From NCBI GenBank assembly GCA_045837725.1, contig JBEWZL010000209.1:310001-374000 (forward strand): a DNA stretch of 64,000 nt, read 5' to 3'. This document shows, one piece after another, positions 16,011-64,000 of this stretch. This DNA is from Vermamoeba vermiformis. Taxonomy: Eukaryota. The notes beneath the pieces were generated by a model that was given only the letters and a program-made list of their open reading frames with translations, made no database searches and was not told the origin of the DNA. Each line of letters starts with the position of its first letter. Within the stretch, counting starts at the first letter, position 1. The translations under genes were made by a program, and so were the position numbers.

Positions 16011-19000
16011 ATGGCCAACCACTGGTCATCAAATCTATCAGTATACTTAGTATTGATAATAATATTTTGCGGCTTTTCATTCGAGCAAGCTGCATCCGTT
16101 CTGCACGTAAACTCTTCAATGGAGTATAAAAATTGTTTAGGACTGCCAAAACCACCAGGTAAGTATTTTATATAACTGCATTATAATCTAACGATATATT
16201 CGAAGGTTATGATAAACGAAATCCGCTTACGATTGTTGTAAATAATTGGTTTGGATCGAGAATTAATGGACATATAGCCAAAATAATACTTGAAGAGGTT
16301 GTGGGCATTAGAACAACATTACGGGAGGTGGATAATCAAACAGAGAACTGGCCTTTACTTTCATCCGGAGATGCTCACGTTGCGCTTGAAATCTGGTACT
16401 TAAATTATTTTCTAAATTATTTTTTCATTTGTTTATTGTTACGCATTATCGTGTATTTTCAATCGAATTGTTTTTGAAACACACGAATTCTAGATCCCGC
16501 TTTATAATTCTCCGTTTACTTTACTCTTTTTGGTGGATACTAAAAACTTTATCTGTCATAGGGCTACCGATAGTAAAAGGTACATCCAAGACTTCGTAAT
16601 GACGCAGAAAACAGTGGTTCCAGCAGGGCCTTTAGGAATTATTGGTGAAATCGGTACGCTATATATATAGACAAGAATTTATGAATATTAAATAATTATT
16701 TTTCGCGCAACGAAAAGAAACTAAAATTAGTCCTTTTTAAAATCTTAAAGATTGTCGTCACGTGCTGCACTTTTCTTACGCCTTAAATCAAGCCTTAATC
16801 TCTTTGATTTATTATCGCATGCTAAGAGTTAATCCATTGGAGGATCTTGCCTAAAAAGGCATTCCTCTTTTGGTTATTTTTCTTGCCATTCGAATCCGAA
16901 CGACACTCGTGTCAATTTTTTCATGAAACTTGCCCTTATGCCTGTTTAATAACAAATTCTATGCTATATAGGATGGTATATACCGAGATACGTCCAAAAA
17001 GATGTTCCAAAAGTCTTGTTCGGGAAATTCAGCGATGAGGATGCGGCCTACTTCAATAATACATTCTATCTTGGAAGTCCAGAATGGAGCTCATTTGATC
17101 AAAGGATCATTAATTACAATAATTGGAGCTTAACCATACAAAACTTGTCTGGCGAGGACGAACTACTGAGGCTGATTTTGGATCGGTATTACAACCAAGA
17201 GCCGCTATTGTTCTATTTTTGGAAACCTCATCCATTACATGACATCATAGATTTGGTCAAAATTCAATTAGAAGACGCAAGTACGTTACTTACATACTCG
17301 ATCTCGCTGAGTGAGATTCGCGATCTATATTTAGCTAACGGTTAAATGTTTAGTAATTAATGGAACAAGGTTACCATGGTATTCTCCAGACATTTTAGAG
17401 AAGTTTGTTTGGACTGGCTTGGCTTCGTACAGTTACGAAGGATCGTTCTTAGCCAACGGGTTCACGTACTCCAATACCGACCAGACGCAGATTATGGCGC
17501 AGTTGCTTAATGGATCTTCGTACACGGACTCAGCCTGTACGTGGGTGAGAGATCATGAGTCCACCTGGAAGATGTGGGTAGCACCAAGTACGTTCACAAC
17601 ATGCCCTCTTACAACGGTAACTAACGTTTTATTTTTGTTCAGTCGAATACCAAGAAGTGCCTGTCTCACTTCAAATTGCTATGTTGGTCTTAGCGTCATT
17701 TTCTATAGCAGTTTGTGTCTTCTATTTGGTCATGACCCTTATTAAGTAAGTTCGAGCGAAGACACTTTTTGACACTTTGACACGTGACGTGTCACGATCA
17801 GCTCTAACAGATGCGTGTCATTGCACAGTTCCTGACACGCTATGACACGTGTCATAGAATCAAATTAACAGTCATCCGTCATCGCACATATCCTACTCTT
17901 TGCGCAGCATCACGCGACTTCATGCGACTAACAAATGCTTTTTAGGCGCAATACCAAAGTGATCGTAGCAGCCAGCGGCACGTTCCTGATCTCCATGTGC
18001 GTGGGAGGATTTTTCATTTACGGCTCTGTCATTGCTTGGGCAACAAACACCACTCCAGGCTGTGCTATTTTCGAGTGGTTTTTAGCGACAGGATTTGCAC
18101 TGCTCTTTGGCAGTTTGTTCGCTAAGAACGCCCGGATCTACATGCTGTTCTCAAACAAGTCGCTTCAAGTCGTCAAAATTAGTGACCGCGATATAGGTCT
18201 CATCGTCATGTGCTTGTTGTTGGGCGAGTGGGGCATTCTGATCGCTGGTCAAGTCGTTCAAGGTGCTACGTACACCTTTCTTAGTTACCTCACGACTCAG
18301 TATTCATTTTGCATCTTTCACCCTGGCACTGGCATTACATTGCTCGTGTACAACGTAAGTTTTCGAGCCTCGGATCCAGCTGGATCTCGCTACTTAAAGC
18401 ATTAACTCAACGATTGTTTTGATAGGCACTGCTTATAGTCGTTGGTATTTTGATAACAGCTCTCGTCAGCAAACTGAAATTGACACTATATAATGAAAGT
18501 CGATACATGGCACTCGCTGTAAGTAGCTTAAACATGGATCCGGACATAAATCTTAAACTTCATTTTTAGGTATACAATTTTGCACTCGCAGTGATATTCT
18601 TCATCATCGTATTCTTCGTTCAAGATGTCGTAGCCAGATTTGCAGTCACGTGCTGTGCGATCATAGTCGTTGCAAACGTTTCATTGGGCGTGATCTTTGT
18701 TCCCAAGCTGAAACTGCTGTTCAAATACACCGCAGAAGAATTACAAAAAATGAACGACGACCAGCTGAACGCGCTTATTAGAGGCTATAATAAGAAATTT
18801 ACGCCTACTAGCCCCAGCCGAACGTCGATCGATGAGCCTAGACCAGCATTAAATCCAGTCGTAGCAAAAAATATCAATTCAACTATTCCCGTAGAAAATA
18901 GTCATTATAATACCAAAGACTCGGTTCAAGTCAGCACGATTTCGTCCTTTGAAGATGAAATTACGAAGTTGTTGAGCAATGTACGGACAATTACGGCTGA

Positions 19001-19115
19001 AAATGAAGAGCTGAAGAAAGAAAATACTGAATTGAAGGCAGTTGTCGCGAGATTGACCGAACAGCTGAACAATACTAATCATGATAGTACCGATTCAGAA
19101 CATAGTAAAAACTAG
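16011..19115 (+). CDS. Class C (GABA-B/Grl-like) GPCR with glycine-betaine-binding-type (OpuAC/ProX-like) ectodomain
   Basis: Signal peptide; NNWFGSRINGHIAKIILEEVVG, AHVALEIW, GPLGIIGEIGWYIP, PLLFYFWKPHPL; 7TM_3 motifs KVIVAASGTFL, FGSLFAKNARIY, YNESRYM, IFVPKL; C-terminal coiled coil. Confidence 0.85.
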
Positions 19116-31130: not shown

Positions 31131-34100
31131 CTAGTCTGACCTTTCGAGTTGTTCAATAATATGCTCAACCGTTGGACGTTCACTTGGGTTAACCTTCCAA
31201 CAAGAGCGCATAATATCAGCAAGTTTGATTGGACAGTCTTCAGGAATGACAGGTGTCACTCCGTTGTCGCGGATCAGTCTTCCAATCTCGATCGGATCTG
31301 CGTTATTGTGAGGTTCTTTTTGCACCATTACTTCGTACATTAATACTCCGAATGACCATACATCTGTATGGTAAGTCAATTACTGCGTATTAGAAACTTA
31401 TTTGCTTACCTGATTTGGTCGAGTACTCTTTGTTTCGCAGCGACTCAGGCGACATCCATCGAATCGGACCAAGTTCCGATTTTGTTGTTCCGCGCTGAGT
31501 GTCTTCGTCAATAAGACGTGACATGCCAAAGTCTGTTATCTTTGGTTCATTCTTGTGAAGAAGAACGTTTCTCGCTGCCACGTCACGATGAACCATGTTG
31601 TTTGCGTGCAAGTGATTCAAACCTTTCGCTACTCCGAAGATGAACGCTGTTTTTTGTTCGATGGATATAGGCTGATTGGAGTCAAATAGGAGATCATCTA
31701 ACGATCCTCCGTCACAGAACTCGATGACAAGAATGACACTGTCAGTCTCGGGATGAACACTGAAGCCAAACAGTTGAACGACATTGGGATGAGGTCGCAT
31801 TTGTATCATCAGTTCGAGTTCTGAAATGACAGTTGAGTTGGCTTGAGTCATGCTGACTTTGAGTGCGACTGGTGATCCTTTCCAGCTTCCTTTGAACACT
31901 TGACCACTTGCTCCACGACCAATCTGATCGCCGAACTTGATTTGATCGAATGGAATGAACCACTGTCCGTACTTTGATGCCAGCCCTGTCATTGACACGA
32001 CCTTGTCTTTCCCTTGCTTTCGCTTCTTTCTAAGCAATAAAATTAGCAGCAGAGCTCCAGCGATGAGTGCCGCGCCAATTGGGACGACGATTGCTGCAAT
32101 GAGTTCGCCTTCACTGAGTCCTATTGGACCTACAGTTTCATTCAACGCTGTTGGACTATGAGGCGGGACAGTGATAGCATCGGCTTCGAACAGTAGCATC
32201 GCATCAGAGTACGTGCCTCTTCTGCTGTCATCTTTGCCGCCAACTACAACACTGAGCTTGAGGCTGGTTTGATAGACTGCAGAAGCCATGACACTGCTGG
32301 TATAAGTTTGGGTGTACCACTGCCCCGTCGGTACTTCGTAGTAGAAGATTGACGAAAGGCTCGTTGAGAAGCAGACAACAAAGTCTCCAACAGGCACCAT
32401 TGTCAAGTCTTTGCTGAAACTTGACCCGTCTAGCTGTGGTAGCAAAGAGGTCTGGTACGAATCGTGCTCGATGTCGTAAAGGTAAATAGTGGTAAATCTC
32501 AGCACTGCTCGTCCGTCTGATTGTCTTGTTGATATGAAGATCTGGTTGTTATCGATGGCAAAGTACTGCACAAAAAATGTGAAAACGGGCAATGGTGCAG
32601 CTGCTGTTTCAGTCCACTCGAGCGGAGATTGTGCCCGATGCTTGGTGAAACTTCCTTCACTTGTACGGAGATACGCAGTGTCACTGATAGTAAGAACGGG
32701 AATATGAGCGTTGACGAGAGATCGGTCATCGTTCAAATTAAAGTCTGCAGTGGGCAGCGTGCCGTTTTCATTCAGTGTCCAATTGCCACTCAACGGGTCA
32801 TAAACAGCGATAGCTTGATTATTCCAGACCACCAAGTTAGTTCCGAGAGCAGCTGCCGGCAGGTACCATTCTTGGGTGTAATCGCTGAAGGGCATCTCAG
32901 TTGAGTTGAGCCACGTTTGTGCTTCCAAGTCATAGATGTCAACTTTGTTGTAGTACTGCCGACCTAACGTAATAGTCATCTGATCAAATCGGTACATCAT
33001 CACAAAGTGAAGATCGTTTGAAGTCCATAGATTGTCGTTGTTGAGAACGCTTGATTGGTTGAAGCTTGAAAACGTCACTGTCTTGTAGAACACTCCACCA
33101 TTTTCCGTGAAGAAGTTGTCGCCAACCATCGCCACAGGACGGCCACGCAAAGTGATTACTTCATCTGCGATTAAAGTCGCGTTGGCTCCTTGAAATTCAA
33201 AGTGATATCTTTGCGGCGTTGACTCTTCGATGAATTGACATGAGTTGTTTCCCGCGAACAAAGTTGAAATCTCGGTGAAATTCGTTGCCAAAGAGATTGC
33301 ATTCCGTCGAATGTTAACCGCTACAATCTTCGTTTTGCTAGCAATGCAAGCCCATTCTCCAACACTGACGCTAAATTTCAAGCTTGTGAAAGTAGTGGTC
33401 CCAGTGATTTGTCGCCATCGGACCCATGAACCAGAAACATCGTCATAGTAGTAGATGTTTGGTCCGAATCGACCACTATCCACATAAGCGACGTATCCGT
33501 CAACAGCAAACGCGCGCTGAAACTCTAGTAGGGCCAAGACAGCCCCTGTAGTTGCATTAGACCAATAGAATGGCTGATAGGAGCCCATATTGAAAATGAT
33601 CGTTGTTTCTGGTGTCGAGAGTACTGCGTTGATTTCTGCTATTTCCGTTGACAGTTGGTGCCATTCTGAAGTTCCCAGCCGATGAAGAATAATGACCTGA
33701 GCACTCCATACAGCAACGATTCTATTAGTAACATTGAAGTAGAAGTCAGTGAACGTAATTGGATATGCCAACGTGTCAGGAAACTTGTCGATCGTGTCTG
33801 TAGTTCGGTTGTAGATCCACGCCGAAAAAACTGGTTCGTTGGTAGTGACATTCGTTCCTCCAATCACAACGACGATGTCTTCGAAAGCGAATGTAATGCT
33901 ATCAAATAGGTCCATTTTGATCTTGGTGAGTTCAGTGCTGTAGTTCCATTTGCTCGTTGTCAGATCGAGAAAGTCGACGGAGTAACTGCCGATAACGGTC
34001 AGTGTTGATTGATACACCGAGATACTAGTGGCATTAAATACTGTTGGTCCTTGGCCATGGTCTCTAATGAAGTCTTGTTTGGTTGGGTCGAACACAAAAG

Positions 34101-34419
34101 GTGGATTCGCGTATGAGTACCCTCCAACAAAGTACAGGAAAGGTTCTTGAACGACTGGAGTGACGAATCCTCTTTTGCTGGGAAGATAAAGAGGTGTTGT
34201 CCAGTTTCTATTGATGAGATCGAACACTTCAATCTTGTCTGTTGCAACGTTGTCGTGGAACTCCCAACCGCCAACAAAATACAAGTTTGAGCCTGCTTCA
34301 ATCAAAGATAGTCCATCTCTTGGTGAAGAAATTCTCGTGGTGTTGTAAACTACATCGCCATGGACCCAAGAAAGCAAGCAACACAACGCTATTACCAAAA
34401 TGGCTAATCTGGTTGACAT
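31131..34419 (-). CDS. Receptor tyrosine-kinase-like protein, kelch-like ectodomain (copy 1)
   Basis: Signal peptide, kelch-like LYFVGG repeats, single TM, kinase GRGASG/VALK/HRDVAARN/DFG/GPIRWMSPE; one intron before DVWSFG. Confidence 0.93.
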
Positions 34420-34922
34420 CCGCAATCTGACATTAAACGGGATATTAGTTCCGATTAATATTAACTACCATAAAAAATTATTTTAATTACTATCATATTT
34501 ATAAACGAACAATTGGTGCTCTTGAATTTCAAATTGTTTTTGCAAGATCTGAACCTCGTGAGCGTTACAACAACAAGGTTATCACTTAGTTCGAACAAAC
34601 ACTTTGAATAATTGTATAAATGCCAAAAGTAAGTTATAATGTTACTAATTTAACGCTTGTAATGAGCTTAGCTGGATAGAGGTTCCAGACGTACCGCTAG
34701 AAACAAGCGCACATGTGGTTAACTGTAGTTGCATTAGTTGAATTAATTTCGTGTTGGTTTACGTGTTTAATGCTGTCAAAAATAGGCCGGCAATCAATGA
34801 GATTCTTTAACTTTAAATTCCAACGTAAAAAACCGCAAACTTATAATTGCAATTTCAATTATTTATTGCTACTTACAATCGTTTCTTGGAGAGTACGAGC
34901 TATTTTACCAGCCGAAAGAATA

Positions 34923-37900
34923 TTACGTGGAATTCTCAAGTTGTTCAACGATCTGCTCAATCGGGGGACGCTCGGCTGGTTTAACCTTCCAACAAGAGCG
35001 CATAATATCGGCAAGCTTGATTGGACAGTCTTCAGGAATGACAGGTGTCACTCCGTTGTCTCGGATCAGTCTTCCAATCTCGATCGCATCCGCGTTTGTG
35101 TGAGGTTCTTGCTGAGCTACTACCTCATACATGAGCACTCCGAATGACCACACGTCTAAATAATACTATTATTAGATTATCAAGCGTTAGATAAGAACTA
35201 TTTGCTTACCTGATTTGGTCGAGTACTCTTTGTTTCGCAACGATTCAGGTGACATCCATCGAATCGGACCAAGTTCCGATTTTGTTGTTCCACGCTGAGT
35301 GTCTTCATCAATCAGTCGTGACATGCCAAAGTCTGTTATCTTTGGTTCATTCTTGTGAAGAAGAACGTTTCTCGCTGCCACATCGCGGTGAACAATGTTG
35401 TTCGAGTGTAAGTGATTCAGACCTTTTGCAATGCCGAGTAGCAGCAACGTCTTTTGAGTCAGAGGTATTGATTGCTTTGCTTCGAAAAGGAAGTCATCCA
35501 GCGAGCCTCCGTCACAGAACTCGATGACAAGAATGATACTCTCTGTTTCTGGATGAACGCTAAAGCCGAAGAGTTGAACGACATTGGGATGAGGTCGCAT
35601 TTGTATCATCAATTCGAGTTCTGAAATGACAGTTGAGTTGGCTTGAGTCATGCTGACTTTGAGTGCGACTGGTGATCCTTTCCAACTTCCTTTGAACACT
35701 TGACCACTTGCTCCACGACCAATCTGATCTCCGAACTTGATTTGATCGAATGGGATGAACCACTGTCCGTACTTTGATGCCAGTCCTGTCATTGATATGC
35801 TTTGGCCATGTCGACGCTGTTGCTTTTTCTTTCTTCTCAGCAACAAGATCAACAGTAGAGCTCCAGCGATGAGTGCCGCACCAATAGGCACGATAATGGC
35901 GGCAATTAACTCGCCCTGTGTTAGTCCAGCAGGCGTGGATACTGTGTTGTTGGTAGCTTCTGGGCTTGCAGGCGGAATTGTGATTGAGTCGTCTTCAAAC
36001 AGCAGCATTGTGTCCGAAAAAACGCCATTTTGTTGATAATCATGACCACCAACGACAACGCTGAATCCATAGCTCGTTCGATAGACTGCAGATGGTAGTA
36101 CAGTGGCGGTATAATCTTGTTCGTACCATTGACGCGTTGATATCTCATAGTAGAATAGCTGATTCCATGAGGGCGCAAAAGCAACCATAAAATCTCCAAC
36201 AGGAACAATTGTCAAGTATCTTTCAGCTTTAGGCAGCAAAGAAAGGTCGAAAGAATCTTGTTCCACATCGTAAAGATAAATTGTGTTGAAGAATAAATAT
36301 TGTCTGGCTCCATTTCTGCAAGGGACGAAGATTTGGTTGTCGCCAATGGCAAAGTACTGACTTAAAAATCGCCCATTGGTAGACGGCGCCGCAGCTGTTT
36401 CACTCCAGTCGAAAGGAGATTCCGCTTGATGTTTTGTGAAGCTCGGCGTAGTTGTACGAATAAACGCAGTGCCATTGATGGTGAGAACTGGAATGTGTGC
36501 ATTTACCATCTGAAGATCGTTTGGATTCGACAGAGTACCATTGTCATCGAGGGTCCAGACACCAGTTTGAGGTTCGAATGCGGCCATAGATTGGATGTAC
36601 CATACGATCAGCTTGTCGCCAAGAGCAGTTGCTGGCAGGTACCAATCATGCGTGACATCAGTGAATGGCAGTTCAGTTGAGTTGAGCCACGTTTGTCCTT
36701 CCAAGTCATAGATGTCAACTTTGTGGTAGTATTGTCGAAGTTGAGTCCGATCAGAAAAGATACTCTCCATCAACACAAAGTGACGATCATTCGCTGCCCA
36801 AAGAGGAGAGGATGTAAAATTGATGAGCTGCGTGAAGCTATTTTCTGTCAAATTGTGACGCGCAACACCACCGTTTGCCGTGAAAAAGTCATCGCCGACA
36901 ATGGCTACTGGAACTATGTAGGGACTAAATTGTTCGTCTGTGATTAGCGTTGCATTTCCTTCTTGAAAGTCGAAATGATATCGTGTTAAAAGAAACGTGT
37001 CGAAAAAATGACAGGAGTTGTTGCCAGGCAACAGCAGTGTTATGCTTGTGAAGCTCGACGAGAGTGTCAGATATTGTTGTCTTATATTCACTGCAAGTAT
37101 TTTATCGGTTGCTGCAAGGCAAGCCCATTCGCCAGTAAATGTCGCCAATTTGGTGTTGAAAGTATCTGTCAGAACGATCGGAATGATAAGTTGGTCCCAT
37201 ACGCCAGTTTCATCATTGTAATAGCGAATTTCTTTGCTAGTAAGCGAATAGACGAATGCTACGTAGCCATCAACAGCAAACGGATACTGAAATCCTGATA
37301 CTGTCACTTGCGTTAAGTTAACTGAAGGGCTCGTCCAGTTGAACAGATAATAGCCAGTATTGTCGAATATAAAAGTGACTGTCTTTGATGAGGCAATAGT
37401 GCTGACATTTGACGTGTCCATATCTATCTCGTACCACTCTTTCGTTCCCAAACGATGAAGAAGGATGATGCCATTAGGAGCCCATACGGATATAACTTGG
37501 TTGGTGACGGTGAACTTGAAATCGGAGTATATTCCGTTTCGCAATAAAGCGTTTGGAAATTCTTCAATTTGGTTCGTAGTTCGGTTGTAGATCCAAGCTG
37601 AAAAAACAGGTTCGTTGGTAGTGATGTTCGTTCCTCCTATTACGACTACTATGTCTTCAAACGTAAACGTAATCGTATAAAATAGGTCCATTTTGATCTT
37701 GGTGAGTTCGGTGCTGTAGTTCCATGTTTTCGTTGTCAGATCGAGAAAGTCGACGGAGTAAGTGCCGATGACAGTCAAGGTAGACTCGTGCAATGAGATA
37801 TCAAAGGGAGTCAGTACTGTTGGTCCTTGTCCATGGTCTTTAATGAAGTCTTGTTTGTTTGGGTCGAACACAAAAGGTGGATTCGCGTATGAGTACCCTC

Positions 37901-38186
37901 CAACAAAGTACAGGAAAGGTTCTTGAACGACTGGAGTGACGAATCCTCTTTTGCTAGGAAGATAAAGAGGTGTTGTCCAGTTTCTATTGATGAGATCAAA
38001 CACTTCAATCTTGTCTGTTGCAACGTTGTCGTGGAACTCCCAACCGCCAACAAAATACAAGTTTGAGCCTGCTTCAATCAAGGATAGTCCATCTCTCGGT
38101 GAAGATATGCGTGTCGTGTTGAATATTACGTCGGAGAGGACCAGGGGAAGCAAGTAACACAAAACAAGAGCAAATCTGGATGACAT
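34923..38186 (-). CDS. Receptor tyrosine-kinase-like protein, kelch-like ectodomain (copy 2, tandem paralog)
   Basis: Same architecture and same single intron position as copy 1. Confidence 0.93.
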
Positions 38187-38696
38187 CCGAGCTTAAAGTT
38201 TAATATTATTAATTCAGCGCAAAATCATTATAAAAAAATGTAAATTTTAACATCAAGAATAGGAACGAGATCAAAATTATGAGCGTGGGTTTTAGTAGAT
38301 TCGCCCGGCGATCTGTCAGTTATTCTATTATCGCGACTTACCAACAATTAAGCTTGCATGTGCATGCACTTATTACTAATAATCCGTATTATGGAGTTCT
38401 GGGTGATGAATCATATCAAATTAGTTTTTGACATAACGTTCGGCTAATTAGCGGCATTTTTAAGCTTTGAACCGCAAGGATACGGAAAAGATTCTTTGTG
38501 TACGACGTTAAACTCTAATAGAACGATAGTGGTCGTTAATTGGCTGCAAACTTATCCCATTGTTCCTGGGCAGTGCCAATGATTGTCCTGCCAAGACGGG
38601 ACCGGCAGAAATTTAACCATGTTCTGTGAATATTCTTTGTAAACCAGTGACTCAATAATAATGCTATTTACCTTTTCTTTCTATTTACATAATTTA

Positions 38697-41480
38697 TTAG
38701 ATCGGATCTGAATTGGAGTACGACGAATCGTCCTCGTCATCTGATGTAATCAGCCTTCGCTTAAGTTCGTTGTTTTCTCTCTTAAGAATTTCATTTTGCT
38801 GCTTCAGCTGTTCATTTTCCTCGTGCAATTTTCTTGTATTCGAGATCAACTTCCCTAGTTCTCCGTCGATGGATGATAATCCAGACGACATGTAGCTCGT
38901 ATTATTCGGCTCATAAGAAGATACCCTAACGGAACTTTCCTGTTGGGAGTGATGTTGCTCTTTTTGTTTCGCGGATCCCATGCGAGATCTAGCCTTTTGA
39001 TGAATGGCTCTATTGATCTCCAAGTCATTTCGAAGCCGCAGCTCTTCATCAGTGTACTTGAACGTGAGGTAAATCTTTGGCACGAAGATTAAGCCCAGGG
39101 CCATGTTTGTCAAGAACAAAATTCCCACGCAAACTACGACGAACTTCGCCATCGGATCCTCTACAAACATGATAGCAAGGACGAACGCAGCAGCCAAACC
39201 GAAGTTGTACATCTATATAGGGTATAAGAGTGATGAAGACAACGGGATAGCAATACGTACCGCCAAGCCAATGTATTTTGCTTCCGCGTAAAGTGTCAAC
39301 TTCACGTAGCTAATCAAAACGGATATGACAATTCCCACGATGACAAGCGCAGCCTAAGTATAGCGTATGAGCAACTGACATTATGAATGTAAAGTATTAC
39401 GTACGTTGTAGACTAGCAAAGCAACTCCAATGCCGTAGTGGAAACTGCAGAAGTTGTATTCGATCGTGCCATTCGCAATGTAGTCGTAAGCAGGCGGATC
39501 CAAAATTTGTCCTATGATTAGCAACAGCCACTCGCCAATCAAGATCATAAAGACAATCAGTCCGACATCCTTGTCCGTGTACTTCACGATCTTCAGTGAC
39601 CGGTTGCTGAGTACCAAGTAGATCCTTCCATTTTTGGCAAACAAGCTACCAAATAGCGTGCCAAATCCTGTCGCTAAAGTCCATGCAAAGACCGCACAGC
39701 CAATGTCGGTTAAAGTTGAGAACGCGACAACTGACGCGTACATCAACATGCCTCCAACGCACATCGTAATCAAGAACGTTCTACTAGCAGCAATCATCAC
39801 CTTTGTGTTACGTCTGTTTAATGGCAGTTAGTTATGAATTGCAGGAGTAAAGTTTGGGTGTCCGATCTACTTACTTTACGATTACTGAAATCAAGTAGAA
39901 GATGGCCAAAGATACTGACACCGCTGTGATTACATACATAGCGGTAGTGGTAGACTGGTCTATGATTCTAAAGTTCACTAAAGGAAACACGAGTTAATGC
40001 TGGACCTTGTAAATATCGAGTGAGGCACGTACCTGGCAAGATCCAAAATGACCATGTAGCTTCGTTTTGCTTGACCCAGCTGCACGCTACATCGAAGAAG
40101 GAGGCTCCGTTGTATGTCTCATTCAATAGGGCCGTTGTGGTGTCGGTGGTCAGAGTAAATGATTGCAAGAAGTACACGCTCGCAGAGGAGTACGCATTCA
40201 ATCCTGCCCAATACAGCTTCGACAAAATGTCTGCGCGGTGATAATAGTCTTCAAGGAAGCAAGTTAATTCATGTCTCTAATGAAATATAATGATTACGTA
40301 CTCATCATTGGAAAACCAAGTCTGAAAAGTTGAAGTTCTTGGGCGAGTGGATGCGGGCTCCAAAAATAAAACAACATCGGTTCTCTTCGTTCATGAGCCT
40401 CTCTTATACGTGCCATATGATTCGCTTCTCCGCCCAACTCAACTACAGTGAGATTGTAGCCCATATCCTCGATGATCTTGAAATCGCTCACGGACCAGTA
40501 CAAGTAAGGCGTGTAGTACGTGTTGTTGAAGTAAGCCGCAATTGTCTCGTTGAAATTGCCCCAATAGACGCTCGGATAAACATCCAGAACGTATGACGGA
40601 ACATACCAACCTGGTGACACGTGTCATCAGTAAAATGCAACAAAACTGCACGGCAAAAAACAAACTGATTGAATTTTTTCCGGTTGTACTATTATGGTAA
40701 TCAAGTTTAAATTAGTAACAATTCGCTTAAATTTTAACGAGATTGTTTCAAACGTTAAAAATTTCACAATTAATTAATTCTGAAAATTGCAATTCATCTG
40801 TTAATAATGTGAAATAGAGCCGTGACGGTCATAAATTAATTCATAAAATGGTGGGAGTCCCGTGGTTAGATCAATTAAATCCAGCTTACCAACTTGACCA
40901 ACTACACCTAAAGGTCCGCCATTCAAAACTGCTTGTCTCTTAACAACATATTCTTTATAGTAATCGTGCGGGCTGCTTGTCCTATTGATTCAAATTCGGG
41001 TTAAAAATAGCTGACAGCGGATGTCTCGTGCGGCCAAATTTAGCTCGCTGAAAAAGCGCTCGGGATGATTATTAATATGTGTGAATAATAATTACCAATA
41101 TTCTAAGCTTGCGTGTAAACTTCCGTTCGCTAACTGCTCCCACATATCCGCTGTACCTATATCCACTAGGGATGTCTGTATCCCGACTACCTCCGTCAAT
41201 AATATTCGGGCAATATTTACATTTATTTTCGAGCTAGCCCATTGATTTTGAACTAGTCTAATTGGATTTCTATAATCATAGCCTACATTTTTTAAATTGG
41301 AATTAGATCTGATTAGAACACGCGCCAAATCAATTTTTAATTACCATAGACTGCCGAGCGATTTAAACACCTAATTGCTGGATAATTTGTGCTGACCGGA
41401 GTTTCAGTTGTATTGTATGTTTGAGCGAGGCACCATCCTGAATACCAAAGTAAAAATATGAATATTACTTTGGGCACCAT
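38697..41480 (-). CDS. Class C GPCR with OpuAC/ProX-like ectodomain (paralog of 16011-19115)
   Basis: Signal peptide; NQWASSKINVNIARILLTEVVG, LHASLEYW, GWYVPSYV, PMLFYFWSPHPL, FGSLFAKNGRIY, IFVPKI; C-terminal coiled coil; exon layout matches the paralog. Confidence 0.85.
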
Positions 41481-56042: not shown

Positions 56043-59000
56043 CTACATTAAGGCCATTTTAGGACCCTCTTCTGAATCTGGACTCGATCCACCACTCATC
56101 CGACTGTTAGGTGGAGAAGTGAAATCGCTGTATGGATATTCACTGAACGGCGTGTGTACGTTGTTACCGTTCTCAACAAAATAAGGGAAAATATTGTCGG
56201 GTCGTCCTTTGAAGCCATTGGAGTGGCCTGTTGGGACCATCATGGGTGTGGTTGGTGTCGTAGGAGTATTAGGGGTGGGTGGAACGGGTGATCCAAAACT
56301 ATTAGGCATGCCTGTTATCATTAAGACATTAGTATTCTGCGGATCAAAGAGCGGATGCGCGTGATCCTATGTTGGTCGGAAAATTGCTTCTCAATGCTTA
56401 CCATCAAAATCGCCTATCGCGGCCATGTTCCTGAAGTTGGAAACTGGAGGAATAATCATATTCTGCGAAGGCATAATTGGCAAATTGTTCAAGTTCTTTG
56501 GATCTGACAGTGGCGGGGAACCACCGATGTCCATTAACGGTGGAGACAATGGGTTGTTCTTTAGTATGTTCGGGGAGTTATGGGATCCATTACTCCACGA
56601 GCCACTACCATTCTGAAGGTTCTTAGGGCTGTCACTTTCATTTGAGTTTTGCCTAGATCCACGCGTTAGTCGACAGAACTAAATCGAATCAAAGATGTAT
56701 ATAAACAATTCAGCACGAAGAAAAAAGCGAGTTGCTCTAGTCGATCGTGACGCACGAAGAGAAGAAATTTGGATTGAAAAATGAAGCCGTTACATTGCAA
56801 GAAAAATTCGGCGGGAAAAATGTTAGCCCGATCGATTTGAAAGTTGCGTTAATGTAGCGCATAATAAATTGAATCATATCCTAACGCGCGTCGGAAAAAT
56901 GCAAGGTGAATCACTTAAACATAAAAATCAACTTACATTGGATCGCTTGATGCTTCGGGTGAACCTCCACCAATGCCGTAGAGCGGTTTGTTTTTTAATA
57001 GGTTCAGTTGGATGTCGCGCTCTGAGCACAGTTTGCTGATTCGTTCGAGCACGTTCTTGACATGTTTCTGCCATGTAACGGCTGTCAGCAGTTCTACAGA
57101 TTAAATAGATTAGAGATGATGATTGACAAGGCTATTATTGCAAATCTAATAATAGTTGCGCAATGCGGGAAGGTTAAGTGAAACGGAGAAAAGAATGCCC
57201 CACAACGTGCAAAATTCAATTATCCATAAAAGGAAACGAATCGCAAAGTCGATTTTGCTGTGTAAGCAAACGGATGGCGATCGTACACGATTCCAATTCC
57301 CGATTGCTTCTCGGCACGCGACCGCACGAGTTTCTCGTTTCATCAAGAAACAGCAAAATCTACTTACCAATCTCTTTCTCGGCCGTGTCGAATTGCCCGG
57401 ACTCCAAATGGGTGACTACTAACGATTCTAGGGTATTAACTATTGATACAGGGAAGTACTTGAGTTCAGGGTTGTTGATCATGAGTTTTAGCGTTTGATC
57501 CGCCCACTCCAAGGCTGTGTATGTAGAACTCGGTTAATACTCGTAACATATTTTTAAAATATACGAAAACCGTGTCCATTAATTAATCTGGGTATACCAA
57601 ACGGTTATTCTTGTGGAATTCAAACGTACCTTGCTCTTTCATTTTAGCGCGCCAAAAAACTGCCGATCGGGTAGACCACAATAGCACACGATATACGTTA
57701 ATCTCGTAATCGTTCTCACTGTCGTGGAACATCGGCAGCACATGCTTCTCGGTGTGATCCAAGTATTGAAGCATCGACTTGAAATCTGGGTTAGATTCGT
57801 ACTTCATCCTGCTGAAGGTCTGCACGATGATAGTGAAGAACATTTTGTTCGGTGCCACTCGTTGGTGCATCAATCTGTAATAACATATTAGATTAGATGG
57901 CACTAACATCCACAAGCTTTGCATTGGCGATCCATCCCGCAAAAGAATGACGGTTGAATGAATTGAGCTTACCTCGAGAACAGCCTTAGCTTTTTCGTGT
58001 AGTCTAAATTGTTTAATGCTGTCTTAGCAAGCATGCACGAAACTCCGACGGGTGAAGTATCCTTGTACACAAAAAAAGTTAGATTTAACCCGGGATCGTA
58101 TCTTTTGCAAACTAGGCTTACGAGTGCTTTCAAGTTCTTGCAGATGTTATAGGCGAGAGTATTCAGCACGACGGCTTTATCTTTTTCCATTTGTAGGTGG
58201 AAATAGTACGAGAGCAAGGAGTATCCAGATGCAATCTGGTAATCCTTCGTCTCGAACATAAAGTCCTTTGCTATAACAGTAGCGCATTGAACGAACTCGT
58301 CGGCATGCTGTGCGTTTCGTAGTAATAACGAGCCTAAAATGCAAATAGTGTTTAGTAAGATTGCCTTACACGGAGTTTTCACTACAAATGGCCGGGCGCG
58401 ATTAATTTCATGAAAGAATACGATGTAATCTTGAATAATAGCGAACGTGCAGATCTTGCTAGGTTCATTGATTAAAAATATGAAGAATAGTATGATCACA
58501 AAGATCGCTAAAAATTACGTCATGGTGTGATTTATCGACGTGGATTTAGAGTTTATGGATACCGAAAGAAAAATTGATTACCTAGTGCTAAAATCGTATT
58601 TAAAGCCATATTATAGATCCTCTCTTTTCTTGATTGCTGCTCGAAGGGTACTGAGATAAGGGACAGTGCTAGTGAGCCGCTATTTGGTATTTTGAAAAAC
58701 GGGTGGATGAAGTGCAAGTACTTGACGTAAACACTGAGATACGCTGATAATGTTGAACATAATGCGAGGTGCTGCGTATAGGGATCGACAGTTAATTGAA
58801 GACCGTTGTTAGAACCCGGATTAGGTACTGCCGGCTTTTGGATGAACTGAGCTGGTGTTTCTGGAACTTCCATCGCGCCTGTCATATTATTGGGTGATTG
58901 CACGCTATTTTGTGGACTCGGTGTTGAGACTGGGGAGGTCTGGAACTTGGTTGGGTTCTTCCAAATCGCATTTGGTGAGTCGTTTTTCTCCATTTCGCTT

Positions 59001-59242
59001 TTAATCCTCGGAAGCCCATTATTAATAAAATCCGTCTCCTTATTAATTGGCTTTCTTCCGCGTCGCTTGGGTATGGAATAGAGGCAATTTGTTTTTCTCT
59101 TCCTGCACTGTTGGCAGGGATGAGCGCCGTCGCATTTGAGATGCGAAGACCGACAATTCTCGCAGGCTAGCGAGATCATGGATCTTTTGCGCTTATCTGC
59201 CAAATTTTTGACATCTTCTATTGAGGGTTCTTGGCTGGCCAT
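56043..59242 (-). CDS. Zn(II)2Cys6 binuclear-cluster transcription factor
   Basis: ACENCRSSHLKCDGAHPCQQCRKRKTNC followed by KRRGRK; middle region YVKYLHFIHPFF...ALG; P/N/S-rich C-terminal exons. Confidence 0.9.
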
Positions 59243-60150
59243 AAACAATTGTAAGATTATTCAAGATGAGCCTTGAGCCAATCCGTTATTTTTTTTTGTT
59301 TACAAATGGTGTTCGTTTTGATTGCTCCAAGTTAAATATGTACAATAATAACGAAGTTGAGGTATAAGGCAACTTCCTCTTGCGTTTCTCGTCGGAACAA
59401 AAATAATAAATAAAATTCATTGGGCAATCTTTTTTGAGCTATTTTTCGGCGGACAAAACCAACCCCTTAGATTTAGCACCACAAGGGTCTAGTGACCTCG
59501 ATCATAAGATCGGAATGCTCCCTACATCTCTACGGAGGGCCTTCCAGCAACACAAAAGATCGGATTTAACTCACGTAGTTTCTGTGTTTATTCACTTTAC
59601 AGCAAGGCCTATTCTAGGTTGGGAAAGGTAGGCATTTTATTTGACCCACATTATCTTGAACTCTGCACAGTTTTGATACGTCGATTGATGCGCATCTGTA
59701 ATTAAATCCTCCAAAAGAGATTTCCCTCAAAAAGACGAATTAAATCTTTTAATAATTATTAGTCATATTCAATGCCTGCAACGAGCGGAGCAACTAGACT
59801 AAAAATTGCCGCGTGCACGCTGATGCGTAGATTTGGATTACTAAATTTGAACACGTTGAACTTGGCGTGGCGTATAATTTATGATGTTATCGATATCGGT
59901 ATGTTTATTTTACGCGTATCAATGTTCCATTACTGCAGTACTTGCTTACTATTGCACAATCTTGAAAAATCGAAACGACCGACGTTCGCTAGTGGCATGA
60001 TCCAGGATGGATGACGGGACCATCTGTGTAAAACGTGGTAAAACACATATCTGATATTAAAAAGAGATTGCTTTGGTGTTGTTTACGAGCATTGTTTGAA
60101 CTGGCTCGTGCCCACATAAATTAATTTTATCGTGTTGGTCCTCGCACACG

Positions 60151-63100
60151 ATGGTCTCTCGATTATTATTTGACCGCGGGTATCGGCTATTTAAGGCGAC
60201 TAGGACTGGATTTTTGGGGAATACTGGGGCAGGATCAAGTGTAAGTTAGGCTCGATCTAGAATGGCTTGCATTTTAATAATATTTATTTTAATATATTAG
60301 ATTATTTCTCGTTCTTTTGCCAAGCAAGTAGCTCAAAAAACACCCCAATCTGAACCAGATGCAAAAGAAAAATTACAAAAAAATGCCAAAAAACCCGCAG
60401 CACGCCATACTACCACTAAAAATACCGCCGAAAATATAGGCAATAATGTAGATAATGTAAAAAATACAGCAACCCCCAGACGAAAAACTAAAATCACTGA
60501 ACCCATTACTGCATCTGGCGAAAACACGACAGCACCATCAACAAAGCCAGCTAAACGCGCACCACGTGCCGCAAAAAAATCAGACAATTCAAGCACAAGT
60601 GCAGCGGATCCGAGCAGCGAGCCCAATGCAGAAAAGCCAAAGCGATCCAGATCAAAGGCACAAGCGACCGCTAGTGATGCAATAACAGCCTCTAGCGACA
60701 TAAAAAAGCCTGTTAAGAAATCAACTGCAAATAAAAAGGCTGCAGAAGTAGCTGCACCAACTGAAGAGGCGAAAGAAGCTGTCAAAACTGCACCCGTCAA
60801 AAAAACCAAGGCAGATCTCGCCAAGTTTGAAGCAGGTAAGAAATATTGACGTTGATACTGCAATATATACATATCTTGTTAACATTATATTTGCTTAGAA
60901 TTTCAGAAGGGCTTGCCAGCGATCCAGAGGCTCGAGGAAAAAGTCAAAGAGTTCAAAAAGAACGCAGGAGCAAAATTGACCGTGATTTTAGCTGAAAAAC
61001 CTTGTAAGATATCATTATTTTATGAATGGTAGGCAATAGGACTAATTTATGTTCGTACGTAGCTGTTGGTATCGATATTGGACGAGCGCTGAAGATCCAA
61101 AACGAAGGACAATTGACTAAAGGTTATTTTGGCAATATTAAATACGATCCAAAGGCACCTGTAAGTAACAAGAAAAAATACTGCTTTTTGGCTGAATTGA
61201 ACGTGTGCTTGTAATTACGATCCACTCTTTGATCCGTGACGCGATTGAGTTCTTAGTCTTACAATGTTGTTATTTAGAACATCACTATTGTCACGTGGTG
61301 TTTTGGTCACATGCTCGATGTCACGGACAAAGAAGGTGCTTCAAAGATTTGGCGAGTGGATGTGCTACCCATCGTTCCTGATGCATTAGTTACTGTGCCA
61401 CCAGCCGAAGTAAACACTTAGCTTTTTTTTTTTATAATCAGTCCCTTGCATAACTAAACTCTTCGTAGGAGATAAAGAAGAGACTAGCACTCGAACAAAT
61501 ATGCATGTTCTTCCGTCACGCTGATGGTACGAAAATATGAATATGCTGCTCTTTGCTTTATTAATCCTTTGTGCCTTCCATTGCAGAAATTGTTGCGGCC
61601 ACTGATGCGGGAAGAGAAGGAGAGTTAATCTTCCGAGAAATCTACGCGTTCAGCGGATCCAAAGCCCCAGTCAAACGCTTGTGGATCTCATCCCAAACTG
61701 ATCGAGCAATCATTCAAGGGTACTGAGAGCACGATACTATAGTGTGGTAAATATAAGCACTAATCGCAGTATGCAGGTTCAAGTCTCTGAAAGACATCAA
61801 GGAGTTCGATCCATTGTACGACGCAGCTGAATCTCGGAGATATGCGGACTGGTACGTATGAAAGTTTTGATTTGTATTTGTGCTTTGAAATCATTATTGA
61901 ATTCTTTCGTGGAGAGATTGGGAAATCAGTTCATGAAGCAGTGTCGGATCTTGATTCCAAAACACAAACTGACATTTTATGGTATCATAGGTTGGTTGGC
62001 ATTAATTTGACGAAGCTGTATACTCTACTTTATCGCGAAAAGTTCTTTGGCAATGTCGTTAGTGTCGGTCGTGTTCAGACTCCAGTTTTACGAATGATAA
62101 CGGATCGTGCCTTGCAACATAATTCCTTCATTCCTGTACGTATATTTATATAATGAGTATTAGCAATGTCTAATTGAAACGTTTAGCAACCGTATTACGA
62201 AATGTTCATCACGTGCCAGCACGGTAATTCTACGTTCAAAATGCAGTGGGCGAGCAAAACGACAGATCCCGCGCAAAGAAAGAAATTTTTGGATAAGAAG
62301 GAGGCTGTCGCTGCCAGAGACAGTTGTCAGCCTACGATGAAAGTCGTTGATGTTAAACAAGAAAAAATAGTAAGTCGGGCTGCATCATTGCCTTTTTAGG
62401 AAATTTGTAACAGGTTTTAATTCGTTCTTTTTTCTAGGAAGAAAAAGGTCCTTTACTGTTTGATTTAACTTCATTACAAAAAGAAATGAACACGAAGCAC
62501 GCACTGAGTGCCAGCAAGACATTACAAATTGCTCAAAGTCTTTATGAGCGACACAAGTTGATCACTTATCCGAGAACCTCTTCAAGATTCTTGCCGAACA
62601 GTTCCAGGCCTATGGTTGCCGCATTAATTAAGTACGTTATTATTCTCCTCACCCCATTGGACCAGATCCATCGTACGGACGAGATCCAATTTTTATGATT
62701 TAATTGGATCCGTTTGAGGCTAACAATTCTTTCTTAGACAATTTACTCAAGACCCAAAGAACAAACATTTCGACGTTTCACCAATTTTAGCGGTAAACAA
62801 GGCGCTCGTTATTCGCAAATCAGCCGTTGTTTTCAACGAGACGAAAGTGACCGATCACCACGCTTTATTGCCGACTTTGAATTCTGATTGGCAGAATTTA
62901 GCGTCAAAATTGGATGAGAAGGAGATAGTAGTGTTTCAAGCTATTACCAAGCGATTTTTAAGTAAGATCTGTTTCGGATGTGGATCTTTCTCTCGGTATG
63001 TTTTTATTAATCATTGCTATTATTAATAGGTTTGTTCTTGCCTGATTTGGAAAAGACGCGGTACGAGTTAAAAGCGGAAAATAACGGCAATGTTTTCGTT

Positions 63101-64000
63101 GCCAGTTACAATATAATTAACAATCTTGGTTGGAAGGCGGTACGTATTATTTATCAATTTATATATTAAATACTATTACTTATAATTATAATAGATGTAC
63201 CGCGGTGAGTTGACTAAAGAAGAATTGGAAGAAGACAAAAAATTCCCGGCACTGAAAGTTGGCCAAGAAATTACGTGCACTGTTCCTCCTTTAGTAGAGG
63301 TACATAATTATAAGGATATATATGAAATTATTCAGTTTTCATATTTTCTAAAAGAAACTGGGATCGAGATCTGATCTAACGTCTCTTTGATTTTAGGAAA
63401 AAAATACAAAGCCACCAGCGTTTTTCACTGAAGCATCGCTATTGACTGCAATGCAAAACCCGACAAAATATATTGAAACAAATAGCGTAACTGAAAATGA
63501 AGAAATTGCCGAGGAGTGGGGTCTAGGCACTGCTTCGACACGCGCTGGCATTATCGAACGGTTGACTAGCGTGGGATATATTAAGAAAAATAATAGAGCC
63601 CTCTTCCCTACGCGCAAGGGCATTCGATTTATCAAGTTAATTCAAGACGTAAGTTGTGAAATTTCGCTCAAAAGTGATGTGCGACCCGACTTTTGACACG
63701 ATATTTTTCATATAGGAACCGATTGCTAATGTTGCAACTACCGGCAAATGGGAGCACGCATTGGCTAAGATTAAGGACGGAAAGTTGGTACGTATCGATG
63801 GCCACTCAACCGAGTTACCATATTTGGAAGTCATCGCCTCGCTCGAGAACCCGAAATTACTCTATTTTTTTTCTGATGTTTTGCTGATAGGCTGCCAATG
63901 AGTTTACATCTGGCATTAAGACAATGGTTAGCGAGCATTGTACGAGATACAAAGAGTAAGTCAGATCTAGATCCGCTTAACGACCACTGGGTAATTTTTT
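60151..64000 (+). CDS. topB: Type IA DNA topoisomerase, bacterial TopB (topo III)-like, with presequence; 3' end beyond window
   Basis: Spliced motifs [67 protein letters not shown] (catalytic Tyr codon 62567-62569), [27 protein letters not shown]. Confidence 0.93.

Follow-up and report, generated by a model that had tools for sequence, protein, structure and literature searches.

We analysed a window of 64,000 nucleotides (nt) from Vermamoeba vermiformis (assembly GCA_045837725.1, contig JBEWZL010000209.1, positions 310,001 to 374,000 of the forward strand); all coordinates below are counted from the first letter of this window. From position 60151 to the window end the plus strand carries an intron-rich gene for a type IA DNA topoisomerase of the bacterial TopB (topoisomerase III, Topo III) kind. 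An initial annotation, made from the sequence letters without database searches, had described it as an old horizontal acquisition with spliceosomal introns, a mitochondrial-type presequence and a role in maintaining mitochondrial DNA (mtDNA). We read the part 59401-64000, where the listing of stop-to-stop frames gave, on the plus strand, short open pieces with GT/AG borders; 17 exons joined from 60151 to the window end make a single open frame of 858 codons, which runs off the window. The features of the gene, all on the plus strand, are as follows (aa, amino acids; GC, fraction of G and C).

60151-60240, plus strand: exon 1 (aa 1-30), ATG to AGT, with the start codon and an Arg-rich, acid-poor N-terminus
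60241-60300, plus strand: intron 1, 60 nt, GTAAGT..TAG, GC 0.25
60301-60835, plus strand: exon 2 (aa 31-208), opening with I-I-S-R-S-F-A-K and containing the candidate cleavage motif, a conserved block (aa 37-66) and a basic linker
60310-60321, plus strand: R-S-F-A (residues 34-37), candidate cleavage between Phe and Ala, a pattern match only
60899-61003, 61063-61160, 61278-61409, 61469-61526 and 61587-61719, plus strand: exons 3-7, Toprim domain
60994-60996, plus strand: codon of Glu241 in the Toprim motif A-E-K-P-S, by alignment
61601-61624, plus strand: acidic cluster T-D-A-G-R-E-G-E, by alignment
61777-61851, 61991-62135, 62187-62369, 62438-62631 and 62738-62961, plus strand: exons 8-12, type IA core (PF01131)
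62567-62569, plus strand: codon of the catalytic Tyr562 in I-T-Y-P-R-T, aligning with T-Y-P-R of Escherichia coli TopB
63030-63139, 63195-63299, 63397-63648, 63716-63787 and 63891-63955, plus strand: exons 13-17, type IA core (PF01131)
63457-63522, plus strand: TopB-specific loop insertion of 22 aa, present in all TopB rows of the alignment, a gap in E. coli TopA
63956-64000, plus strand: start of intron 17 with a GTAAGT donor; the window ends inside this intron

The 16 complete introns range in length from 51 to 139 nt; all begin with GTA and finish with AG (TAG in 14, CAG in two), and their pooled GC is 0.33 versus 0.43 in the exons. Counting from an in-frame stop 17 codons upstream, the earliest Met codon is the ATG at 60151. 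The initial annotation had drawn exon 1 in exactly the same place (60151-60240, followed by the GTAAGT donor), with exon 2 starting at 60301 and reading I-I-S-R-S-F-A-K. Its count of more than 10 introns was correct, there being 16 complete GT..AG introns in the window and a 17th donor at 63956. We also found the four motifs that it had quoted: KRLWISS at 61673-61693, ADWLVGINLT across the joint of exons 8 and 9 (61844-62012), KLITYPRT at 62555-62578 and KVTDHHA at 62844-62864.

A search with exon 15 in which longer proteins were allowed (166 candidates) returned two proteins, P0001 (963 aa, 93% identical) and P0002 (940 aa, 44% identical). An alignment of the spliced model with P0001 over its whole length had 721 identities in 853 aligned positions, and gaps were seen only inside exons 2 and 14, never at a joint. 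P0001 and its near-copy P0152, also of 963 aa, are 84% identical to the model and come from contigs of 3192 and 3132 nt, while the homologous gene in a genomic metagenome contig of a more distant relative (L088) spans ∼4350 nt; since the shorter contigs have no room for introns of this size, we infer from the lengths that they are transcript-derived. Given 858 open codons over 17 joints, the colinearity with P0001 and the matching splice joints, the exon model is far beyond chance. About 105 C-terminal residues, among them a four-Cys ribbon, probably lie past the window end in two further exons, as P0001 runs 105 aa further and L088 has two more exon-like matches.

Splicing of the gene in close relatives was seen when public sequencing runs were compared with the part 59901-64000 of the window. 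Contigs of one run (X1) cover 26 of 30 bins of this part, leaving the first 55 nt of exon 1 uncovered, and skip 13 of the 16 complete introns (introns 1-7, 9, 10 and 12-15) at the joints of the model; some of these joints have the usual ambiguity of 1-3 bases, and those of introns 4, 12 and 13 have one differing letter. For introns 8, 11 and 16 no joint was listed among the run comparisons. Intron 15 is also skipped in raw RNA reads (three of run X6 and three of run X8), and three reads of X6 depart from the genome sequence at 63787, which is the exon 16 donor. That exon 1 is spliced to the core, on which the initial annotation had made its case depend, is confirmed by an X1 contig with the joint from 60240 to 60301. 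A caution is due here: X1 represents a near-identical organism or strain, 95-99% like the window, and its RNA nature is only guessed, while the raw RNA runs X6, X7 and X8 gave just 4, 2 and 7 reads, at 90-99% likeness, which add little beyond the joint of intron 15.

To what family the protein belongs was determined from profile and structure comparisons. With Pfam, run on ten exon translations, PF01131 was found in four (exons 9, 11 and 15 above the cut-off, exon 11 with 70.2 bits, and exon 12 below it); no Pfam family matched the exon 2 linker. With NCBIfam, run on six core exons, a bacterial topoisomerase III model came first in all six (NF005829 in five, TIGR01056 in one), and the profile positions of these exons rise colinearly from 34 to 551. 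For full-length scoring we used P0001 as a close-ortholog stand-in for the whole window protein. Its Pfam families were confirmed by an Atlas look-up, with PF01751 (37.4 bits) covering positions 235-373; it scored 539.1 bits with NF005829 and 476.4 bits with TIGR01056, while no TopA, archaeal or reverse-gyrase model of NCBIfam exceeded 216 bits and the bacterial TopA models reached at most 175. Both of the leading scores are slightly under the curated NCBIfam cut-offs (597 and 515.75, respectively), which speaks against a plain assignment to TopB; these thresholds are meant for naming prokaryotic proteins, and the most fitting description of the window protein is that of a eukaryotic, divergent branch of TopB.

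Comparison with solved structures gave the same picture. P0001 matched E. coli Topo III with 231.5 bits, entry 6k8n (named topoisomerase III) with 88.9 and bacterial TopA entries with 74-79, as against 55.3 bits for human TOP3A and 45.2 for TOP3B. Exon 11 of the window gene scored 43.9 bits with E. coli Topo III versus 18.5 with TOP3A; exon 15 matched residues 482-554 of E. coli Topo III with 36.3 bits, and neither Top3-alpha nor Top3-beta was listed for it at E ≤ 1. The claim that the gene encodes a bacterial-type TopB and not a eukaryotic Top3 is thus supported both by these scores and by the position of the protein inside bacterial TopB in the tree described below; a grouping with eukaryotic Top3, named beforehand as the outcome that would speak against the claim, is contradicted by the similarity scores.

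The catalytic residues were read in an alignment of 246 rows and in a second alignment, A1, of 15 rows, 11 of them bacterial. Along with Glu241, the acidic cluster and Tyr562, the T-D-H-H-A motif is intact in the window protein. Where the classical D-x-D has its second Asp, the window protein has Gly. The form D-A-G is found in 12 of the 15 A1 rows, including 10 of the 11 bacterial ones, and D-x-G was counted in 13 of the 15; further variants are D-A-A (P0016), D-S-G (P0010 and P0013) and D-P-S (P0002). As D-A-G is the prevailing form, D-x-G, judged from the alignment, is a trait of the bacterial subfamily and not a lesion. The Cys residues of the C-terminal ribbon, which lies past the window end, are invariant in 15 of 15 A1 rows. 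The site of the TopB-specific insertion we take to be that of the decatenation loop of E. coli Topo III, presumably residues 502-519 of that enzyme; the loop of the window protein is acidic, not basic. In the eukaryotic ortholog P0002 the catalytic sites are altered (T-A-R-P-S, with the Toprim Glu lost, D-P-S-L-E-G-E and T-Y-P-Q-T), with the Tyr kept, and this protein may be a weakened or non-catalytic form.

To collect relatives, we used P0001 in a HMMER scan, exhaustive over 1.84 billion representatives, which gave 13,813 relatives. Among the best 150 of them, only in P0002, P0003 and P0006 does the match start beyond the first 150 residues; the Balamuthia mandrillaris protein KAL6077820.1, here P0006, is an entry named only ‘DNA topoisomerase’. 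Bacterial relatives were taken with one genome per species, and the best 80 of 591 loci were 31-37% identical; they belong to Bacillota (27), Actinomycetota (25), Bacteroidota (20), Verrucomicrobiota (4), Margulisbacteria (2) and Pseudomonadota (2), with no Alphaproteobacteria among these 80. Relatives on contigs filed as viral were 31-35% identical (best 80 of 157), so that no source is closer than another. A metagenome scan with P0001 gave five loci, of which only L088 is an ortholog; the contigs of P0001 itself are outside that collection. In a profile search with four eukaryotic proteins, only P0003 and P0006 stood above the bacterial matches among the 120 proteins listed. The query proteins P0001 and P0002 were themselves absent from these 120, in which weaker bacterial matches were present (the word-based candidate step can miss a query's own members); the listing is therefore non-exhaustive and cannot bound the range of the family.

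A FastTree phylogeny was built from 246 rows: the model, 145 representatives of ≥500 aa, 78 of the 80 named loci of ≥500 aa, seven viral rows, six paralogs from two Bacillota genomes, and TopB and TopA of E. coli K-12; proteins of <500 aa were dropped. Five eukaryotic rows were united in this tree (SH-like support 93) and stood beside a group containing Margulisbacteria (92), within a Bacteroidota-rich clade of 57 rows. Two further candidates for eukaryotic members, P0066 and P0093, have short N-terminal extensions and were placed in bacterial clades; they were rejected. Four of the seven viral rows (L092, L095, L096 and L147) fell inside bacterial clades and the other three outside the printed subtree, none of the seven being in the eukaryotic clade; some of the bacterial clades neighbouring the eukaryotic one include sequences from contigs filed as viral. 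A conjugative element as the source, at which the initial annotation hinted, is a possibility.

A second tree was made with IQ-TREE under LG+C20+F+G4 by posterior mean site frequency (PMSF), from 54 rows and 680 columns, with TopA as outgroup; 192 of the 246 rows were left out for feasibility. Here the five eukaryotic rows, one of them from the amoebozoan Balamuthia, the only named relative among them, form one clade (100/98), within which P0003 joins P0006 (100/97) and P0002 joins the pair of the window protein and P0001 (100/99). This clade is nested in a bacterial clade of 35 rows (100/96), with E. coli TopB outside and the TopA outgroup split off at 100/100. Its sister is the group containing Margulisbacteria, with support of 97/78. 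The N-terminal extensions are absent from the tree columns that were kept, so that the cleavage-like R-x-F-A/S site which the eukaryotic proteins share (see below) is independent support for a single origin. Both trees contain neither eukaryotic Top3-alpha and Top3-beta nor archaeal Topo III, and this sampling weighs against taking the placement as complete.

Composition and gene order bear on the age of the transfer. GC of the exons (0.43) and GC at third codon positions (GC3, 0.41-0.44) are within or just under the ranges of six neighbouring coding stretches (GC 0.42-0.51, GC3 0.44-0.53), and the correlation of codon usage with the neighbours is 0.60 (control range 0.16-0.79). The gene recurs in the contig L088, where its introns, intron 1 among them, occupy matching positions. 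Head-to-head with the topoisomerase gene, ∼890 nt away, the window has the following divergent neighbour:

58553-59260, minus strand: exon of a Zn(II)2Cys6-type regulator

The regulator is kept upstream of the topoisomerase gene in L088 (positions 268-945) with 84.5% identity over 226 aa and the same order and orientation. Inside the eukaryotic clade, identities drop to 35-38%. Because the composition is host-like, the synteny is shared with L088 and the identities within the clade are this low, the gene is, by sequence criteria, an old, domesticated transfer. The suggestion that it came from bacteria, and not recently, has accordingly held up, on the strength of a deep eukaryotic clade that includes Balamuthia, an ameliorated composition and synteny common to it and a related species.

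We turn to the N-terminal extension, on which the question of localisation depends. Eukaryotic members have 122-239 residues before the Toprim motif, while in nearly all bacterial matches the aligned part starts at residue 5 or earlier. The window protein has a single acidic residue (D8) among its first 47, the second being at position 48, and its first 40 residues contain seven Arg/Lys and eight Ser plus Thr. Similar counts (7-10 Arg/Lys and 0-1 acidic in the first 40 residues) were obtained throughout the window protein, P0001, P0002, P0006 and, counted from its second Met, P0003. A processing-peptidase motif has Arg at position -3, as in R-x-F/Y/L followed by A/S. In their extensions the window protein, P0001 and P0003 each have one copy of the pattern R-x-[FYL]-[AS], and P0002 has two; it is present in L088 as well. 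By a rough estimate it is expected ∼0.2 times per 200 residues. The residues after R-x-[FYL] are similar across lineages (A/S-K/S, then Q/V/K). Recurrence of the pattern in three independent lineages is suggestive of targeting, a pointer from sequence and not decisive. Furthermore, the window protein has no Met between residues 1 and 288, hence no isoform free of the presequence could arise by an alternative start.

Across the window protein, P0001 and L088, invariant positions make up 47% of residues 1-36 (11 of the first 15 when counted by eye) and 31% of the linker at 67-190. The best-kept part of the extension lies between them, just past the candidate cleavage site: in residues 37-66 (60319-60408), 22 of 30 positions (73%) are invariant. 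The exon 2 linker is rich in Lys, Ala, Pro, Ser and Thr, with 21% Lys/Arg and a net charge of +17.

Several observations weigh against a mitochondrial destination. The R-x-[FYL]-[AS] pattern is absent from P0006 of Balamuthia. The maximal hydrophobic moment of the window N-terminus (0.73, shuffle mean 0.61) is not above that of shuffled sequences: the fraction of shuffles reaching the observed value was 0.18 for the window, 0.78 for P0006 and 0.07-0.78 over the six N-termini compared. The many K/R clusters of the basic linker could serve as nuclear signals. In the sister branch the extension holds a SAP domain, at 76-104 of P0003 (37.2 bits) and 121-153 of P0006 (52.4 bits; Pfam cut-off 23.9), and SAP domains are commoner in nuclear proteins. 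The Lys-rich linker, like the SAP domain of the relatives, would fit chromatin binding, which keeps a nuclear or dual role open. Judged from these extensions, each of the two eukaryotic branches seems to have acquired its own kind of DNA-binding module once the transfer had taken place. Of the mitochondrial-type presequence proposed in the initial annotation, then, the Arg-rich, acid-poor composition stands and is joined by R-x-F/Y-A/S in divergent lineages, while the amphipathic moment, no higher than in shuffles, gives it no help. On balance we rate a mitochondrial localisation as somewhat better than an even bet.

We observed the gene structure, its splicing in close relatives, the family of the product, its intact catalytic residues and its phylogenetic position. 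The reading we prefer (probability about 0.55) is that this is a functional nuclear gene derived from a bacterial TopB, which was transferred horizontally before the carriers diverged and would now encode a mitochondrial enzyme imported by means of a presequence. Since the transfer the gene would have gained at least 17 spliceosomal introns, a host-like composition and an N-terminal extension of ∼235 residues. In type IA enzymes the Toprim Glu and the acidic cluster bind Mg2+, the Tyr cuts one strand to form a 5′-phosphotyrosine, another strand is passed through the protein-bridged gate and the cut is resealed. The core of the window protein would work in the same way, with Tyr562 as the cutting residue, and the TopB-specific loop may favour unlinking of gapped or hemicatenated molecules. 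The first ∼36 residues would be a matrix-targeting presequence, cut after R-S-F; the Lys/Ala/Pro-rich linker might then keep the enzyme on the mitochondrial nucleoid, where it could resolve intermediates of mtDNA replication termination and recombination. Import, the cleavage site, enzymatic activity and the substrate, including a part as mtDNA decatenase, are in this scheme predictions. One could speculate more specifically that an amoeboid protist lineage runs its mtDNA with a class of topoisomerase not on record for eukaryotes, a TopB whose donor resembled Margulisbacteria or Bacteroidota (a mobile element, prey or symbiont cell may have been the source), to which a presequence and, independently in two branches, different tethers were added, a histone-H1-like Lys/Ala/Pro tail in one branch and SAP in the other; this fuller scenario is tentative, and we put it slightly short of even odds.

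The same bacterial origin is compatible with a nuclear enzyme, or a nuclear and mitochondrial one, acting as an additional topoisomerase in recombination or replication stress, with linker or SAP domain both binding chromatin and serving as nuclear signal. The linker (21% Lys/Arg, net +17), the SAP domains of P0003 and P0006 above the Pfam cut-off and the lack of a significant amphipathic moment all suit such an enzyme. Less easily accommodated are the acid-poor, Arg-rich extreme N-terminus, which is kept in all lineages despite little sequence conservation between them, the recurrence of R-x-F/Y-A/S in three divergent lineages and the missing internal start for a presequence-free form. The Lys-rich regions do not discriminate well, as DNA-binding regions of this type are known in mitochondrial nucleoid proteins too: in the available part of its description, the Physarum nucleoid protein Glom has a Lys-rich, Pro-rich N-terminal half that condenses DNA (PMC7463775). 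We consider the nuclear or dual enzyme unlikely, if well worth keeping in mind.

Considerably less probable, in our estimate, is an origin that is not lineage-specific, either as a relic of the mitochondrial endosymbiont or of an early eukaryote lost almost everywhere, or by arrival with a giant virus of amoebae. It draws on the bacterial relatives, which come from six phyla, are all 31-37% identical (best 80 of 591) and point to no single donor, and on the sister group having support of just 97/78. It is at odds with zero Alphaproteobacteria among those 80 loci and with finding only three more eukaryote-like clusters (P0002, P0003 and P0006) among the best 150 relatives. As for a virus, the similarity of viral-contig relatives is no greater than that of bacterial ones (31-35%, best 80 of 157), none of the seven viral rows is in the eukaryotic clade of the 246-row tree, and the type IA enzyme of Mimivirus is listed, in the portion of the survey at hand, as of the TopA-like kind (PMC2647321). 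Finally, a bacterial contaminant, an insertion of very recent date or a pseudogene in decay would have to be reconciled with 16 complete GT..AG introns and spliced transcripts, a host-like composition, eukaryotic neighbours in conserved synteny and an intact 858-codon frame with its catalytic residues; we regard this as negligible.

The closest known system is the bacterial TopB itself (E. coli, PDB 1D6M and 1I7D; NF005829/PRK07726, TIGR01056), with which the window protein shares the Toprim domain and type IA core, the Glu, the Tyr, D-H-H-A and the loop, as well as the C-terminal four-Cys ribbon, seen in P0001. It differs in that the gene is nuclear with at least 17 introns, in the N-terminal extension of ∼235 aa, in being 31-37% identical to bacterial loci (best 80 of 591) and, compared with E. 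coli Topo III, in the acidic rather than basic loop. Balamuthia P0006 and P0003 are in the same clade (100/98) and have the same core and an Arg-rich N-terminal extension; they are ∼35% identical to the window protein, have SAP where it has the Lys/Ala/Pro-rich linker, and keep a recognisable Toprim_Crpt C-terminal repeat, unlike the window protein.

In function the proposed enzyme would resemble the mitochondrial isoform of TOP3A, a type IA enzyme that in human and Drosophila unlinks hemicatenated mtDNA and is imported via an N-terminal targeting sequence, according to passages of a review of mitochondrial topoisomerases (PMC6514783). TOP3A, however, belongs to the native eukaryotic Top3 family (55 bits with P0001), and its nuclear and mitochondrial forms come from alternative starts, as the same passages state (PMC6514783), whereas the window gene has no second start. 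Another parallel is provided by the TopA-like (omega-type) enzymes of plant and algal organelles and by the kinetoplastid mitochondrial enzyme, which are bacterial-type or lineage-specific type IA enzymes serving organelles in the sections available from two sources (PMC2647321, PMC6514783); those of plants and algae are TopA-type enzymes that arrived along with the plastid, while the window enzyme is of the TopB kind and has no plastid link.

In the accessible sections of the survey by Forterre and Gadelle, eukaryotes have two type IA enzymes, the native Topo III and, by transfer to plants, one of the TopA-like kind, and bacterial Topo III occurs patchily across phyla and on plasmids as well; these sections make no mention of bacterial-type Topo III in eukaryotes (PMC2647321). 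The corresponding sections of the mitochondrial review name Top3-alpha, algal and plant Top1A and gyrase, and the kinetoplastid type IA enzyme (PMC6514783), and for candidate mitochondrial proteins of Andalucia the portion at hand mentions only ‘DNA topoisomerases II and III’ (PMC7050145). A literature match to ‘TopB’ (PMC8516963) concerned TopBP1 and was irrelevant. No description of a eukaryotic family of bacterial-type TopB was found in the literature outside subscription journals and supplementary tables, where it may be listed.

If the preferred reading is true, a bacterial TopB fixed in a eukaryotic lineage would be a third eukaryotic type IA enzyme beside the two in the available text of the survey (PMC2647321), and another case of organelle-DNA maintenance machinery being rebuilt from foreign parts. 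The clade would then offer a clean natural experiment in domestication, showing how a transferred gene gains introns, takes on the composition of its host and acquires a targeting sequence, and how sister branches add two different DNA-binding modules. Balamuthia, one of the carriers, is pathogenic to humans; an enzyme of bacterial type that the host does not have is of the usual interest as a marker for the lineage.

Elsewhere in the window, we observed two tandem paralogous single-exon genes of ∼1000 aa each on the minus strand (31390-34464 and 35187-38192). Both have a signal-peptide-like start, Kelch-type repeats, a transmembrane stretch and a tyrosine-kinase-like domain; the nearest database proteins (two found) are unnamed, and the Atlas matches are generic kinase clusters from many phyla. 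Two similar frames, at 18570-19115 on the plus strand and 38697-39212 on the minus strand, begin with a hydrophobic stretch, continue into a Glu/Asn-rich tail of coiled-coil-like character and resemble the terminal exons of paralogous genes for multi-pass membrane receptors.

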